DNA of 9,396 nucleotides from a virus (taxonomy: Duplodnaviria; Heunggongvirae; Uroviricota; Caudoviricetes), in IMG/VR virus record IMGVR_UViG_2681813236_000005; one strand, 5' to 3'. The translations under genes and the position numbers were made by a program. The notes beneath the pieces were generated by a model. The model saw only the letters and a list, made by a program, of their open reading frames with translations, made no database searches and had not been told where the DNA came from. Below, piece by piece: positions 1,282-7,141 of the stretch (position 1 is its first letter; each line of letters starts with the position of its first letter).

Positions 1282-1607
1282 AAACCTTCCGCTGGAAAGT
1301 GAAACCCGGGATGGATGTGACATCGGCTCCTTCCGTCAGGGAGGTGCGCTTTGGTGATGGCTATTCCCAGCGTGCGCCTGCCGGGCTGAACGCTGACCTG
1401 AAAACGTACAGCGTGACGCTGTCTGTCTCCCGTGAGGAGGCCACGGCGCTGGAGTCGTTTCTGGCAGAGCACGGAGGCTGGAAGGCCTTTCTGTGGACGC
1501 CGCCTTATGGTTACAGGCAGATAAAGGTGACCTGCGCAAAATGGTCGTCGCAGGTCAGTATGTTGCGTGTTGAGTTCAGCGCAGAGTTTAAACAGGTGGT
1601 GAACTGA
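1278..1607 (+). CDS. M: Minor tail protein M (tail tip assembly)
   Basis: 109-aa ORF MKTFRWKVKPGMDV...EFSAEFKQVVN, the same length as and closely resembling lambda gpM as I recall it. Its start overlaps the H stop (ATGA) and there is a good SD upstream. Confidence 0.92.
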   Translation: MKTFRWKVKPGMDVTSAPSVREVRFGDGYSQRAPAGLNADLKTYSVTLSVSREEATALESFLAEHGGWKAFLWTPPYGYRQIKVTCAKWSSQVSMLRVEFSAEFKQVVN

Positions 1608-2305
1608 TGCAGGATATCCGGCAGGAAACACTGAATGAATGCACCCGTGCGGAGCAGTCGGCCAGCGTGGTGCTCTGGGAAATCGATCTGACAGAGGTCG
1701 GTGGAGAACGTTATTTTTTCTGTAATGAGCAGAACGAAAAAGGTGAGCCGGTCACCTGGCAGGGGCGACAGTATCAGCCGTATCCCATTCAGGGGAGCGG
1801 TTTTGAACTGAATGGCAAAGGCACCAGTACGCGCCCCACGCTGACGGTTTCTAACCTGTACGGTATGGTCACCGGGATGGCGGAAGATATGCAGAGTCTG
1901 GTCGGCGGAACGGTGGTCCGGCGTAAGGTTTACGCCCGTTTTCTGGATGCGGTGAACTTCGTCAACGGAAACAGAGACGCCGATCCGGAGCAGGAGGTGA
2001 TCAGCCGCTGGCGCATCGAGCAGTGCAGCGAACTGAGCGCGGTGAGTGCCTCCTTTGTACTGTCCACGCCGACGGAAACGGATGGCGCTGTTTTTCCGGG
2101 ACGTATCATGCTGGCCAACACCTGCACCTGGACCTATCGCGGTGATGAGTGCGGTTATCACGGTCCGGCAGTCGCGGATGAATATGACCAGCTGACGTCC
2201 GATATCACGAAGGATAAATGCAGCAAATGCCTGAGCGGCTGTAAGTTTCGCAATAACGTCGGCAACTTTGGCGGCTTCCTTTCCATTAACAAACTTTCGC
2301 AGTAA
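1607..2305 (+). CDS. L: Minor tail protein L (tail tip assembly; Cys-rich C-terminus)
   Basis: 232-aa ORF, the same length as lambda gpL. Its ATG overlaps the M stop (TGATG). A C-terminal cysteine cluster (CTWTYRGDEC...CSKCLSGC, nt 2123-2242) is present. Position between M and K matches lambda. Confidence 0.92.
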   Translation: MQDIRQETLNECTRAEQSASVVLWEIDLTEVGGERYFFCNEQNEKGEPVTWQGRQYQPYPIQGSGFELNGKGTSTRPTLTVSNLYGMVTGMAEDMQSLVGGTVVRRKVYARFLDAVNFVNGNRDADPEQEVISRWRIEQCSELSAVSASFVLSTPTETDGAVFPGRIMLANTCTWTYRGDECGYHGPAVADEYDQLTSDITKDKCSKCLSGCKFRNNVGNFGGFLSINKLSQ

Positions 2306-2309
2306 ACCC

Positions 2310-3053
2310 ATGACAGAAACAGAATCAGCGATTCTGGCGCACGCCCGGCGATGTGCGCCAGCGGAGTCGTGCGGCTTCGTGGTGAGAGCGCCGGAGGGGG
2401 AAAGATATTTTCCCTGCATGAATATTTCCGGTGAGCCGGAGGGTTATTTCCGGATGTCGCCGGAAGACTGGCTGCAGGCAGAAATGCAGGGTGAGATTGT
2501 GGCGCTGGTCCACAGCCACCCCGGTGGTCTGCCCTGGCTGAGTGAGGCCGACCGGCGGCTGCAGGTGCAGAGTGATTTGCCGTGGTGGCTGGTCTGCCTG
2601 GGCGTGATTCACAAGTTCCGCTGTGTGCCGTATCTCACCGGGCGGCGCTTTGAGCACGGAGTGACGGACTGTTACACGCTGTTCCGGGACGCTTACCATC
2701 TGGCGGGAATTGAGATGCCGGATTTTCATCGCGAGGATGACTGGTGGCGTCACGGTCAGAATCTCTATCTTGACAATATGGAGGCAACGGGTTTTTACCG
2801 TGTCGCACTGACAGAGGCGCAGCCTGGCGACGTGCTGCTGTGCTGCTTTGGTTCATCGGTGCCGAATCATGCCGCCATTTACTGCGGCGACGGCGAGCTG
2901 CTGCACCATATTCCTGAACAACTGAGTAAACGAGAGAGGTACACCGACAAATGGCAGCGACGCACACACTCCCTCTGGCGTCACCGGGCATGGCACGCAT
3001 CTGCCTTTACGGGGATTTGCAACGATTTGGCCGCCGCATCGACCTTCGTGTGA
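2310..3053 (+). CDS. K: Tail assembly protein K (JAB/MPN metalloprotease-like plus NlpC/P60 peptidase-like domains); start uncertain, alternative in-frame start at 2454
   Basis: The ORF carries a JAMM-type motif HSHPGGLPWLSEAD (nt 2511-2552) and an NlpC/P60-like Cys (DCYTLF, nt 2670-2672) with downstream His residues (nt 2868-2870, 2904-2909). The ATG at 2310 lies 4 nt after the L stop; the Met at 2454 would give a 199-aa product, matching the length I recall for the lambda K annotation. The Met at 2268 in the ORF track overlaps L and is unlikely to be the start. Confidence 0.85.
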   Translation: MTETESAILAHARRCAPAESCGFVVRAPEGERYFPCMNISGEPEGYFRMSPEDWLQAEMQGEIVALVHSHPGGLPWLSEADRRLQVQSDLPWWLVCLGVIHKFRCVPYLTGRRFEHGVTDCYTLFRDAYHLAGIEMPDFHREDDWWRHGQNLYLDNMEATGFYRVALTEAQPGDVLLCCFGSSVPNHAAIYCGDGELLHHIPEQLSKRERYTDKWQRRTHSLWRHRAWHASAFTGICNDLAAASTFV

Positions 3054-3598
3054 AAACGGGGGCTGAAGTCATCCGGGCGCTGGCCACACAGCTCCCGGCG
3101 TTTCGTCAGAAACTGAGCGATGGCTGGTATCAGATACGGATTGCCGGGCGTGATACAGGTGAAAACGAATTATCAGCCCGTCTGAATGAGCCGCTGGAAA
3201 ATGGTGCCGTGATCCACATCGTACCGCGTCTGGCGGGTGCTAAAAGTGGCGGTATTTTTCAGGCAGTGCTGGGGGCGGCGCTGATTGCGGTTGCATGGTG
3301 GAACCCTGTGGGCTGGCTGGGGGCCGCGGCTGTATCGGGTATGTATGCGGCAGGGGCCAGTATGATCCTGGGCGGTGTTGCACAGATGCTGGCCCCCAAA
3401 CCCAGAACCCCCCGAACACAGACAACGGATAACGGTAAGCAGAACACCTATTTCTCCTCACTGGATAACATGGTTGCCCAGGGCAATGTTCTGCCTGTTC
3501 TGTACGGTGAAATGCGCGTGGGGTCACGCGTGGTTTCTCAGGAGATCAGCACGGCAGACGAAGGGGACGGTGGTCAGGTTGTGGTGATTGGTCGCTGA
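2951..3598 (+). CDS. I: Tail assembly protein I (ubiquitin-like beta-grasp N-terminal domain, hydrophobic Gly/Ala-rich middle, conserved C-terminus)
   Basis: 215-aa ORF MAATHTLPLASPGMARICLYGDLQRFGRR...GDGGQVVVIGR resembling lambda gpI. It overlaps the 3' end of K by 103 nt in another frame, as in lambda. An SD-like AGAGAGG sits at 2933-2939. Confidence 0.9.
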   Translation: MAATHTLPLASPGMARICLYGDLQRFGRRIDLRVKTGAEVIRALATQLPAFRQKLSDGWYQIRIAGRDTGENELSARLNEPLENGAVIHIVPRLAGAKSGGIFQAVLGAALIAVAWWNPVGWLGAAAVSGMYAAGASMILGGVAQMLAPKPRTPRTQTTDNGKQNTYFSSLDNMVAQGNVLPVLYGEMRVGSRVVSQEISTADEGDGGQVVVIGR

Positions 3599-3658: not shown

Positions 3659-6600
3659 ATGGGTAAAGGCAGCAGTAAGGGGCATACCCCGCGCGAAGCG
3701 AAGGACAACCTGAAGTCCACGCAGTTGCTGAGTGTGATCGATGCCATCAGCGAAGGGCCGATTGAAGGTCCGGTGGATGGCTTAAAAAGCGTGCTGCTGA
3801 ACAGTACGCCAGTGCTGGACAGTGAGGGGAATACCAACATCGCCGGTGTCACGGTGGTGTTCCGGGCTGGTGAGCAGGAGCAGACTCCGCCGGAGGGATT
3901 TGAATCCTCCGGCTCCGAGACGGTGCTGGGTACGGAAGTGAAATATGACACGCCGATCACCCGCACCATTACGTCTGCAAACATCGACCGTCTGCGCTTT
4001 ACCTTCGGTGTACAGGCACTGGTGGAAACCACCTCAAAGGGTGACAGGAATCCGTCGGAAGTCCGCCTGCTGGTTCAGATACAACGTAACGGTGGCTGGG
4101 TGACGGAAAAAGACATCACCATTAAGGGCAAAACCACCTCGCAGTATCTGGCCTCGGTGGTGGTGGGTAACCTGCCGCCGCGCCCGTTTAATATCCGGAT
4201 GCGCAGGATGACGCCGGACAGCACCACAGACCAGCTGCAGAACAAAACGCTCTGGTCGTCATACACTGAAATCATCGATGTGAAACAGTGCTACCCGAAC
4301 ACGGCACTGGTCGGCGTACAGGTGGATTCGGAGCAGTTCGGCAGCCAGCAGGTGAGCCGTAATTATCATCTGCGCGGGCGTATTCTGCAGGTGCCGTCGA
4401 ACTATAACCCGCAGACGCGGCAATACAGCGGTATCTGGGACGGAACGTTTAAGCCAGCATACAGCAATAACATGGCCTGGTGTCTGTGGGATATGCTGAC
4501 CCATCCACGCTACGGCATGGGGAAACGTCTTGGTGCGGCGGATGTGGACAAATGGGCGCTGTATGTCATCGGCCAGTACTGCGACCAGTCAGTGCCGGAC
4601 GGCTTTGGCGGCACGGAGCCGCGCATCGCCTGTAATGCGTACCTGACCACACAGCGCAAGGCGTGGGATGTGCTCAGTGATTTCTGCTCGGCGATGCGCT
4701 GTATGCCGGTATGGAACGGGCAGACGCTGACGTTCGTGCAGGACCGACCGTCGGATAAGGTGTGGACCTATAACCGCAGTAATGTGGTGATGCCGGATGA
4801 TGGCGCGCCGTTCCGCTACAGCTTCAGCGCCCTGAAAGACCGCCATAATGCCGTTGAGGTGAACTGGATTGACCCGAACAACGGCTGGGAGACGGCGACA
4901 GAGCTTGTGGAGGATACGCAGGCCATTGCCCGTTACGGTCGTAACGTCACGAAGATGGATGCTTTTGGCTGTACCAGCCGGGGGCAGGCACACCGCGCCG
5001 GGCTGTGGCTGATTAAAACGGAACTGCTGGAAACGCAGACCGTGGATTTCAGCGTGGGCGCAGAAGGGCTTCGCCATGTGCCGGGCGATGTTATTGAAAT
5101 CTGCGATGATGACTATGCCGGTATCAGCACCGGTGGTCGCGTGCTGGCGGTGAACAGCCAGACCCGGACGCTGACGCTCGACCGTGAAATCACGCTGCCA
5201 TCCTCCGGCACCACGCTGATAAGCCTGGTTGACGGTGAGGGCAATCCGGTCAGCGTGGAGGTTCAGTCCGTCACCGACGGCGTGAAGGTAAAAGTGAGCC
5301 GTGTTCCTGACGGTGTTGCTGAATACAGCGTATGGGGGCTGAAGCTGCCGACGCTGCGCCAGCGACTGTTCCGCTGCGTGAGTATCCGTGAGAACGATGA
5401 CGGCACGTATGCCATCACCGCCGTGCAGCATGTGCCGGAAAAAGAGGCCATCGTGGATAACGGGGCGCACTTTGACGGCGACCAGAGTGGCACGGTGAAT
5501 GGTGTCACGCCGCCAGCGGTGCAGCACCTGACCGCAGAAGTCACTGCAGACAGCGGGGAATATCAGGTGCTGGCGCGCTGGGACACGCCGAAGGTGGTGA
5601 AGGGCGTGAGCTTCCTGCTTCGCCTGACCGTGGCAGCGGATGACGGCAGTGAGCGGCTGGTCAGCACGGCCCGGACGACGGAAACAACATACCGCTTCAG
5701 GCAGCTGGCGCTGGGGCGGTACACGCTGACAGTCCGGGCAGTAAATGCCTGGGGGCAGCAGGGAGACCCGGCGTCGGTATCGTTCCGGATTGCCGCACCG
5801 GCAGCACCGTCGCGGATTGAGCTGACACCGGGGTATTTTCAGATAACGGCGGTCCCGAAACTGGCTGTATATGACCCGACGGTGCAGTTTGAGTTCTGGT
5901 TCTCGGAAAAACGGATTGCGGATATCAGGCAGGTTGAAACCACAGCCCGCTATCTTGGCACGGCGCTGTACTGGATAGCTGCCAGTATCAATATCAGGCC
6001 GGGCCATGATTATTATTTTTACGTTCGCAGTGTGAACACAGTCGGCAAATCGGCATTCGTGGAGGCTGTTGGTCAGCCGAGTGATGATGCATCCGGCTAT
6101 CTGGATTTTTTCAAAGGCGAGATAGGAAAAACCCATCTGGCTCAGGAGCTGTGGACGCAGATTGATAACGGTCAGCTGGCGCCTGATCTGGCTGAAATCA
6201 GGACGTCCATTACGGATGTCAGCAATGAAATCACACAGACCGTCAATAAGAAACTGGAAGACCAGAGTGCAGCGATCCAGCAGATACAGAAGGTTCAGGT
6301 TGATACAAATAATAACCTGAACAGCATGTGGGCTGTGAAGCTGCAGCAGATGCAGGACGGACGCCTTTATATCGCGGGTATCGGTGCCGGTATTGAGAAC
6401 ACCCCTGACGGCATGCAGAGTCAGGTGCTGCTGGCGGCGGACAGGATTGCGATGGTTAATCCTGCGAATGGCAACACAAAACCGATGTTTGTTGGTCAGG
6501 GCGATCAGATATTCATGAACGACGTGTTCCTGAAGCGCCTGACGGCCCCCACCATTACCAGCGGCGGCAATCCTCCAGCCTTTTCCCTGACGCCGGACGG

Positions 6601-7141
6601 GCGGCTGACGGCGAAAAATGCCGATATCAGCGGTAATGTAAATGCGAACTCCGGAACACTCAACAACGTCACGATTAACCAGAACTGCCGGATTCTGGGA
6701 AAACTGTCTGCCAGCCAGATTGAAGGCGATATTGTCAAAACGGTGGGAAAAGCCTTTCCGAGAAACAGCAGTTATGCCAGCGGTACGATAACGGTCACTG
6801 TGTATGATGATCAGGCTTTTGACCGTCAGATAGTGATTCCACCCGTTCTGTTTCGCGGTGGTAAGCATGAAAACTTCAACAGCAACAACCAACAGTCATA
6901 CTGGTATTCAACCTGTAAGCTGCAGGTACTGAAGAACGGACAGGAAATCTTTCACCAACCTGCGACGGATGTCAGTCGGGTATTTTCATCAGTCATTGAT
7001 ATGCCTGCAGGACACGGGCATGTCACCCTGACTTTCAATGTCTCTTCATATGGCGCTAATAACTGGACGCCAACGAGCAGTATCAGTGACCTTCTTGTTG
7101 TCGTGATGAAGAAATCCACAGCTGGTATCAGTATCAGCTGA
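3659..7141 (+). CDS. J: Central tail fibre / host specificity protein J (tail tip, receptor binding)
   Basis: 1160-aa ORF starting [42 protein letters not shown], the lambda gpJ N-terminus as I recall it. The size is typical of gpJ-family proteins, it follows I as in lambda, and it contains FN3-like modules in the middle. The TGA stop at 7139-7141 lies 2 nt before the N run, so the CDS appears complete. Confidence 0.93.

Follow-up and report, generated by a model that had tools for sequence, protein, structure and literature searches.

The window, by which we mean the whole 9,396-nucleotide stretch of phage DNA that was analysed, holds a lambdoid tail tip module with genes in the order M-L-K-I-J (Table 1). 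M and L overlap by one base, and K lies between L and I and upstream of J, the position expected of a TAPK protein. The same gene order is found in locus L097 and in annotated phages, and the order in locus L098 agrees as far as its genes have Pfam matches. In the nearest E. coli genome, which is 99.6% identical over window positions 2200-3100, the same 744-nt coding sequence is annotated as WP_112044343.1. Gene K of the window very probably runs from the ATG at 2310 to the TGA that ends at 3053 and is predicted to encode one two-domain enzyme of 247 residues. The gene boundaries, the domain content, the conservation of the motifs and an indel in the lambda reference sequence are all demonstrated directly in this analysis, and the biology of the long form is already known; the RefSeq annotation of E. 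coli already uses 247 aa.

Table 1. Coordinates of genes and sequence features in and around gene K of the window
Feature	Position (strand)	Remarks
Gene M	1278-1607	lambdoid tail tip module
Gene L, minor tail protein L	1607-2305 (+)	Phage_tail_L PF05100, 332.6 bits
L stop codon TAA	2303..2305 (+)	read directly from the sequence
L-K spacer ACCC	2306..2309 (+)	4 nt, without Shine-Dalgarno sequence
Gene K, full-length CDS	2310..3053 (+)	247 aa + stop, 744 nt, 28.4 kDa
48-codon extension	2310..2453 (+)	helix 3-15, strands 21-27 and 30-36 of the JAB fold (predicted)
Glu19 (GAG) of APAESCG	2364..2366 (+)	predicted JAMM general acid-base Glu; 66/67 homologues
In-frame ATG (Met37), decoy start	2418..2420 (+)	GTG (Val) in 82/88 close relatives
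Internal GGAGG, SD-like	2438..2442 (+)	codons Pro43-Glu44-Gly45; GGAGGG reaches 2443
Internal ATG (Met49)	2454..2456 (+)	legacy lambda K start, = lambda 14276; 199 aa, 23.0 kDa
JAMM zinc-site motif H68-S69-H70-x7-S78-x2-D81 (HSHPGGLPWLSEAD)	2511..2552 (+)	predicted
NlpC/P60 (C40) cysteine peptidase domain	2640..2981 (+)	predicted; residues 111-224; PF00877, 49.8 bits (cutoff 23), profile 1-105/105
Cys121, His187, His199	2670-2672, 2868-2870, 2904-2906 (+)	predicted NlpC/P60 catalytic residues
Gene K stop codon TGA	ending at 3053 (+)	
Gene I, tail assembly protein	2951..3598 (+)	ubiquitin-like N-terminal domain; PF06805 Lambda_tail_I, 85 bits, profile 2-83/83
Gene J	3659-7141	last of the M-L-K-I-J tail tip genes

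Several further observations concern the locus as a whole. K and I share 103 nt (2951-3053) in different frames, so about 34 codons are doubly coding, which may add constraint on the C-terminal helix of K (residues 230-243). The start of gene I is itself ambiguous: some records use a GTG at 3050 (within GTGA at 3050-3053, overlapping the K stop), giving 182 aa, and the lambda reference starts the gene 99 nt upstream of this, inside K, which in the window gives 215 aa. Because the long start covers positions 2-83 of the Lambda_tail_I profile rather than only 26-83, and because it has a Shine-Dalgarno (SD) sequence (anti-SD pairing of −9.3 kcal/mol versus +0.4 for the short start), the long, K-overlapping start looks right. 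A 302-aa open reading frame beginning with ATG (1511-2419, −) lies antisense to the whole of L and the first part of K; it probably arises mechanically from antisense codon bias, the coding region here being rich in GC.

The lambdoid tail module is extremely common in E. coli prophages, with the K region present in 4375 of 5426 complete E. coli genomes at a median of 3 copies per positive genome and up to 13. Among the database proteins are some (P0026, P0035, P0046 and P0048) in which Phage_tail_L (PF05100) is joined to the two K domains, Prok-JAB and NlpC/P60. Such read-through from L into K may reflect assembly errors, or else indels or mutations near the L stop and the 4-5-nt spacer. Fusions of K to I, carrying PF06805, also occur among the database proteins.

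Candidate start codons and their initiation signals

An earlier sequence-only reading of this DNA had described two in-frame starts for K, at 2310 and 2454. Both are present, 144 nt (48 codons) apart, and three more in-frame starts lie between them: GTG 2379, GTG 2382 and ATG 2418. The candidate products of 247, 223, 211 and 199 aa correspond to 28.4, 25.9, 24.4 and 23.0 kDa. As that reading had noted, the upstream ATG follows the L stop by 4 nt and has no recognizable SD; pairing of the 20 nt before it with the 3′-end of 16S rRNA was calculated at +0.7 kcal/mol, which amounts to none. Its placement of a GGAGGG about 11 nt before the ATG at 2454 also holds: GGAGG ends 11 nt and GGAGGG 10 nt before this codon, with an anti-SD pairing energy of −10.0 kcal/mol, and the resulting 199 aa is indeed the length of K annotated in the lambda reference records (14276..14875). 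Weak SD-like pairing (−6.1 kcal/mol) precedes GTG 2379/2382. A TTG at 2268, from which K would overlap L, was rejected as a start; it has no SD, and homologues do not extend upstream. Taken alone, an open extension of 48 codons would be expected by chance in about 10% of cases.

Because ATG 2310 lacks an SD and lies 4 nt after the L stop, we infer that K is initiated there by translational coupling, in which ribosomes finishing L would terminate and reinitiate. The tight juxtaposition of L and the long-form K start that coupling needs is conserved in distant relatives: in homologues at 49% and 41% identity, the end of L either overlaps this start by 4 nt or leaves a gap of 1 nt.

The JAB/JAMM domain and conservation of the first 48 codons

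Comparison of the two forms of K against domain profiles, proposed by the sequence-only reading, showed that the JAB model is not contained within the 199-aa form. The Prok-JAB profile (PF14464) matches residues 4-94 of the 247-aa form over profile positions 4-99 of 114, with 51.6 bits against a cutoff of 25; the 199-aa form, in contrast, aligns only to the last third of the profile (63-100) and, at 22.1 bits, falls under the 25-bit cutoff. The 48-residue extension by itself matches profile positions 3-40 (E = 4.7e-5). The NCBIfam desampylase model covers residues 3-114 of the long form but has no match to the short form, and the PHROG tail families align to K from residue 1. In a phmmer search against the PDB, the JAMM-type protein 2KKS aligns with query residues 7-110, including LAHARxxxPxExCG; no other PDB entry came up as a sequence relative for the N-terminal half of K, and the alignment pairs LAHARRCAPAESCG with LAHARQALPNEACG.

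The JAMM motif has the form E-xn-H-S/T-H-x7-S-x2-D, and its Glu is the general acid-base residue in AfJAMM and Csn5 (PMC300881). All of its elements are present in K (E19, H68, S69, H70, S78 and D81), although, with E19 in the extension, only the 247-aa form has the full motif; likewise, only the long form scores above the gathering cutoff used for JAMM/MPN+ membership. The HSH of the motif occupies residues 68-70 and thus begins about 20 residues after Met49, not about 30 as had been estimated. Two stretches of the extension had been put forward as sources of the missing Glu. APAESCG contains E19, conserved and predicted to be catalytic, whereas the Glu residues of APEGERYF fall in a stretch that looks variable when the alignment is inspected by eye. 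These results support the 48 codons as an integral part of K, with a JAB/JAMM domain of residues about 1-105. With Met49 as the start, the protein would be left with a broken JAB domain, missing the catalytic Glu, one helix and two strands. The peptide TETESAILAHAR is one expected from the 247-aa form.

Structure prediction points in the same direction. A single-sequence AlphaFold model had a pLDDT of 34 and was replaced by an AlphaFold2 model of 247-aa K built with the homologue alignment, for which pLDDT is 96.9 and pTM is 0.91. In this model, the helix and the two strands contributed by the extension are placed within the JAMM fold at pLDDT 96-98. Foldseek relates the modelled N-terminal half to PfJAMM1 (5LD9/5LDA, the latter with the ubiquitin-like SAMP2), 2KKS, AMSH, CSN5 and Rpn11, with a probability of 1.00 to JAMM proteins and TM scores of 0.60-0.67 when normalised on the small prokaryotic targets (0.66 for PfJAMM1); as modelled, K thus has the MPN fold. 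The C-terminal half is matched by MepS/Spr-type and other NlpC/P60 enzymes. This second domain, a predicted cysteine peptidase, spans residues about 111-226; 66 of 67 diverse homologues retain C121, and the same count holds for H187 and for H199, so that both the profile and the Cys/His residues place it in the NlpC/P60 family. The 199-aa form keeps the NlpC/P60 match.

Conservation of the first 48 codons at the protein level, a check that the sequence-only reading had called for, is seen in close and distant homologues alike. The close set consisted of 88 sequences (80 IMG/VR loci plus annotated phages; 74 unique at the nucleotide level). All 88 have an ATG at codon 1, with the L stop 4-5 nt upstream, and a frame that stays open through the 48 codons with no stops or frameshifts. 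Variable sites in codons 1-48 number 10, 5 and 21 at first, second and third codon positions, a third-position bias, and pN/pS is 0.26, somewhat higher than the 0.14 of codons 49-247. This pattern and this ratio indicate that the extension is under purifying selection in the K frame. The elements of the internal start are also largely kept in this set: GGAGG occurs in 85 of 88 sequences, with a synonymous GGAAG in 2, and codon 49 is ATG in 87 of 88 and ATA in 1.

To reach more distant relatives, we scanned 1.84 billion cluster representatives with HMMER, which gave 2840 relatives at E<=1e-3. Among the full-length representatives listed (36-60% identity, 230-260 aa), nearly all have query residue 2-15 aligned to their own residue 2-15, and their N-termini thus appear to coincide with that of the long form. 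An alignment of 67 diverse homologues was then examined; these were picked from full-length matches, which inflates N-terminal conservation a little, and nearly all listed matches below 65% identity were of this full-length kind. Six of the 24 invariant or near-invariant columns of the alignment fall within the extension. Specifically, G22 and N38 are kept in all 67 proteins, E19 and F47 in 66, C21 in 64 and P17 in 63, and conservation in distant homologues reaches up to residue about 3. In the zinc-site motif, H68, H70 and D81 are invariant (67/67), and S69 (63/67) and S78 (62/67) are otherwise Thr. Met49, in contrast, is kept in only 12 of 67 and is Ile in 42, and Glu44, which forms the core of the internal SD, looks variable by eye among the diverse homologues.

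A missing base in the lambda reference and the annotation of K

Lambda gpK (NP_040598 / AAA96551, 199 aa) is the orthologue of the window's K, with the same M-L-K-I-J order and the same JAB plus NlpC/P60 architecture; lambda-like phages are about 94-95% identical in nucleotide sequence to window positions 2200-3100. The K frame of the window is uninterrupted from the upstream ATG onward, whereas that of the lambda reference (NC_001416/J02459) is split by a 1-nt gap after 14266, and the annotated product lacks residues 1-48. Specifically, 143 nt separate the upstream ATG (14133) from the annotated one (14276), which are therefore out of frame, and a tblastn search of the reference with the window's K returns a split match, residues 1-45 and 30-247, in different frames. 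The orphan upstream frame of the reference still matches Prok-JAB profile positions 3-41. Where J02459/NC_001416 reads GGAGGC-TATTTCC, the window, phage 434, ev243 and 569R4 have one more base. The same extra base is present in five independently deposited lambda or lambda-derived sequences (PV340536, OM418626 (lambda imm434), KT232076, DE3 EU078592 and LC730321); all other relatives that we examined carry the G missing from J02459 near 14266, bar OR974322 and OR474059. With the base restored, lambda K matches Prok-JAB profile positions 3-112 of 114 at 52.3 bits, compared with 23.3 bits for the reference protein.

Whole-genome comparison of J02459 with LC730321 placed the additional G after 14266 and also found a compensating loss of G at 138, where J02459 has one G more than LC730321. 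A commercial supplier's note reportedly lists 138 delG and 14266 insG as differences from J02459; these are the same two indels. Relative to LC730321, J02459 also has 12 substitutions and lacks a C at 20833 in the region of the side-tail-fibre reading frame (orf-401). In the literature that was searched, we found no explicit published statement of a lambda K mis-start or of a missing G at 14266.

The two sequences that share the reference state at 14266, OR974322 and OR474059, are identical or near-identical to J02459 genome-wide. OR974322 carries Sam7 (45352) but neither the cI857 nor the ind1 change, and elsewhere hardly differs from J02459; this suggests a consensus built with the reference as guide. 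OR474059, an engineered design, is unverified. Both look reference-derived and were treated as such. A real strain mutation at 14266, instead of a sequencing error, was considered and rejected, as these two records are too weak when set against five independent sequences. OR974322 is described as a 'phage Lambda isolate' from chicken cloacal swabs but is essentially J02459 plus Sam7; what was sequenced may have been control DNA of laboratory lambda and not a phage from the environment.

The G missing from the 1982 reference puts ATG 14133 out of frame, and we propose that annotators then settled on the first ATG in frame that has an SD. The 199-aa annotation of lambda K is accordingly traced to one G absent after 14266 in J02459/NC_001416 and, as the two ATGs are out of frame there, the short form in lambda is a sequence problem and not a free choice between two starts. 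Judged from these sequence comparisons, the 199 aa given for lambda K are an artefact inherited from that record. The suspicion of the sequence-only reading, that the short form might be an N-terminally truncated annotation, is thus supported by profile matches, conservation, the predicted structure and the reference indel.

The effects on database annotation are visible. K is given as 247 aa in the lambda sequence PV340536 (a resequenced lambda that encodes and annotates the same form as the window), phage 434, vB_EcoS-569R4 and RefSeq E. coli WP_112044343.1; as 223 aa in NC_049955; as 211 aa in the lambda record KT232076, whose start is equivalent to ATG 2418; and as 199 aa in NC_001416, J02459, DE3, OM418626 and OR974322. 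The short call has reached thousands of database entries and also stands on some newer lambda records that do contain the extra G (OM418626 and DE3). Clusters of 247-aa proteins with thousands of members dominate the homologue list, and several 199-aa clusters, of 1,700-4,900 members each, persist in the protein database.

The start of K and the role of its two domains

The strong SD before ATG 2454 (−10.0 kcal/mol) keeps internal initiation in play, and some initiation at this codon may occur. One reading of the locus is that K makes two products, the 247-aa enzyme by coupling to L and, from the internal SD, a 199-aa protein whose NlpC/P60 domain follows an inactive stump of JAB, an isoform that could serve a separate purpose, such as scaffolding or regulating full-length K. 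The near-complete retention of both ATG 2454 and GGAGG in the close relatives fits with this, as does the existence of TAPK versions with NlpC/P60 only in some phages (PMC1779556). Nevertheless, we consider two products unlikely. The rarity of Met49 among the diverse homologues and the variable look of Glu44 argue that the signal is not a feature of the family, ATA at codon 49 and GGAAG instead of GGAGG both occur naturally, the 11-nt spacing exceeds the optimum, and, judging by the model, what is left of the JAB domain (residues 49-105) would be unfolded. The GGAGG would most simply be a by-product of the Pro-Glu-Gly codons. A specific extension of this idea, in which the ratio of two K proteins from one reading frame tunes the processing of ubiquitin-like gpI during tail tip assembly, is a shade more doubtful; if true, two K proteins would explain how the short form passed as the gene product for 40 years.

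It is far less probable that the legacy annotation is right, with K starting at ATG 2454 and the upstream 144 nt being an untranslated spacer or a separate small reading frame. The annotation of lambda 14276..14875 in the reference records, the strong SD and the several 199-aa database clusters, each with thousands of members, are what speak for it, yet the first of these is explained by the missing base. In addition, the short form scores under the Prok-JAB cutoff and lacks the catalytic Glu, the 48 codons are under purifying selection and homologous to profile positions 3-40, and the distant homologues are co-terminal with the long form. An intermediate start at GTG 2379, GTG 2382 or ATG 2418 (224, 223 or 211 aa) is the least credible of these readings. 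The 223-aa K of NC_049955, the 211-aa K of KT232076 and the weak pairing before the two GTGs are in its favour, but every intermediate start loses helix 3-15 and E19, the GTGs also lose part of strand 21-27, and ATG 2418 loses both strands; codon 37 is moreover GTG in most close relatives, and the conservation up to residue about 3 in distant homologues is left outside all three products. The reading that we prefer remains the 247-aa protein started at ATG 2310.

A protein with this architecture has been described before: TAPK is a JAB plus NlpC/P60 protein encoded beside the ubiquitin-like TAPI, and its JAB domain was predicted to cut at the C-terminal Gly of the ubiquitin-like domain of I and so to release that domain (Iyer et al. 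2006, PMC1779556). Lambda gpK is needed for tail assembly and is not found in virions, being undetected by mass spectrometry of lambda virions and unresolved in later cryo-EM (PMC10721106, PMC12617516), and in virion gpI the resolved part starts at residue 101 (PMC11101478). The structural work on virions fits with the N-terminal domain of gpI being removed or disordered, though it proves neither. We infer the enzymatic role of K: it would act in tail tip assembly, where, following the standing prediction, its JAB domain would process the ubiquitin-like N-terminal domain of gpI. gpI is the predicted substrate or partner of K.

The closest known systems differ from K in several ways. With the prokaryotic JAMM peptidases (PF14464; PfJAMM1 5LD9/5LDA; AfJAMM; DSY2949 2KKS), K shares the E-xn-H-S-H-x7-S-x2-D motif, a minimal fold of about 110-130 residues according to the model, and a gene position beside that of a beta-grasp/ubiquitin-like protein, here gpI. 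Unlike them, it is fused to NlpC/P60, belongs to tail assembly and not to sulfur-carrier/SAMP pathways, and has a substrate that is predicted. With E. coli MepS/Spr, it shares full-length PF00877 coverage, the conserved Cys-His-His and the fold match; unlike MepS/Spr, it is phage-encoded and apparently cytoplasmic, and may act on gpI or gpH instead of peptidoglycan. No signal peptide or lipobox was evident when the K sequence was inspected by eye.

Apart from the curation of the lambda record, nothing here is surprising, as the JAB plus NlpC/P60 architecture has been in print since 2003-2006. The curation point is that the most-cited phage record, NC_001416/J02459, gives K without its predicted catalytic Glu and about 45% of the JAB domain. 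A gpK cloned, modelled or mutated from the reference coordinates would be truncated and probably have a misfolded JAB domain, which bears on any test of the old prediction that gpI, with its ubiquitin-like domain, is processed by K.
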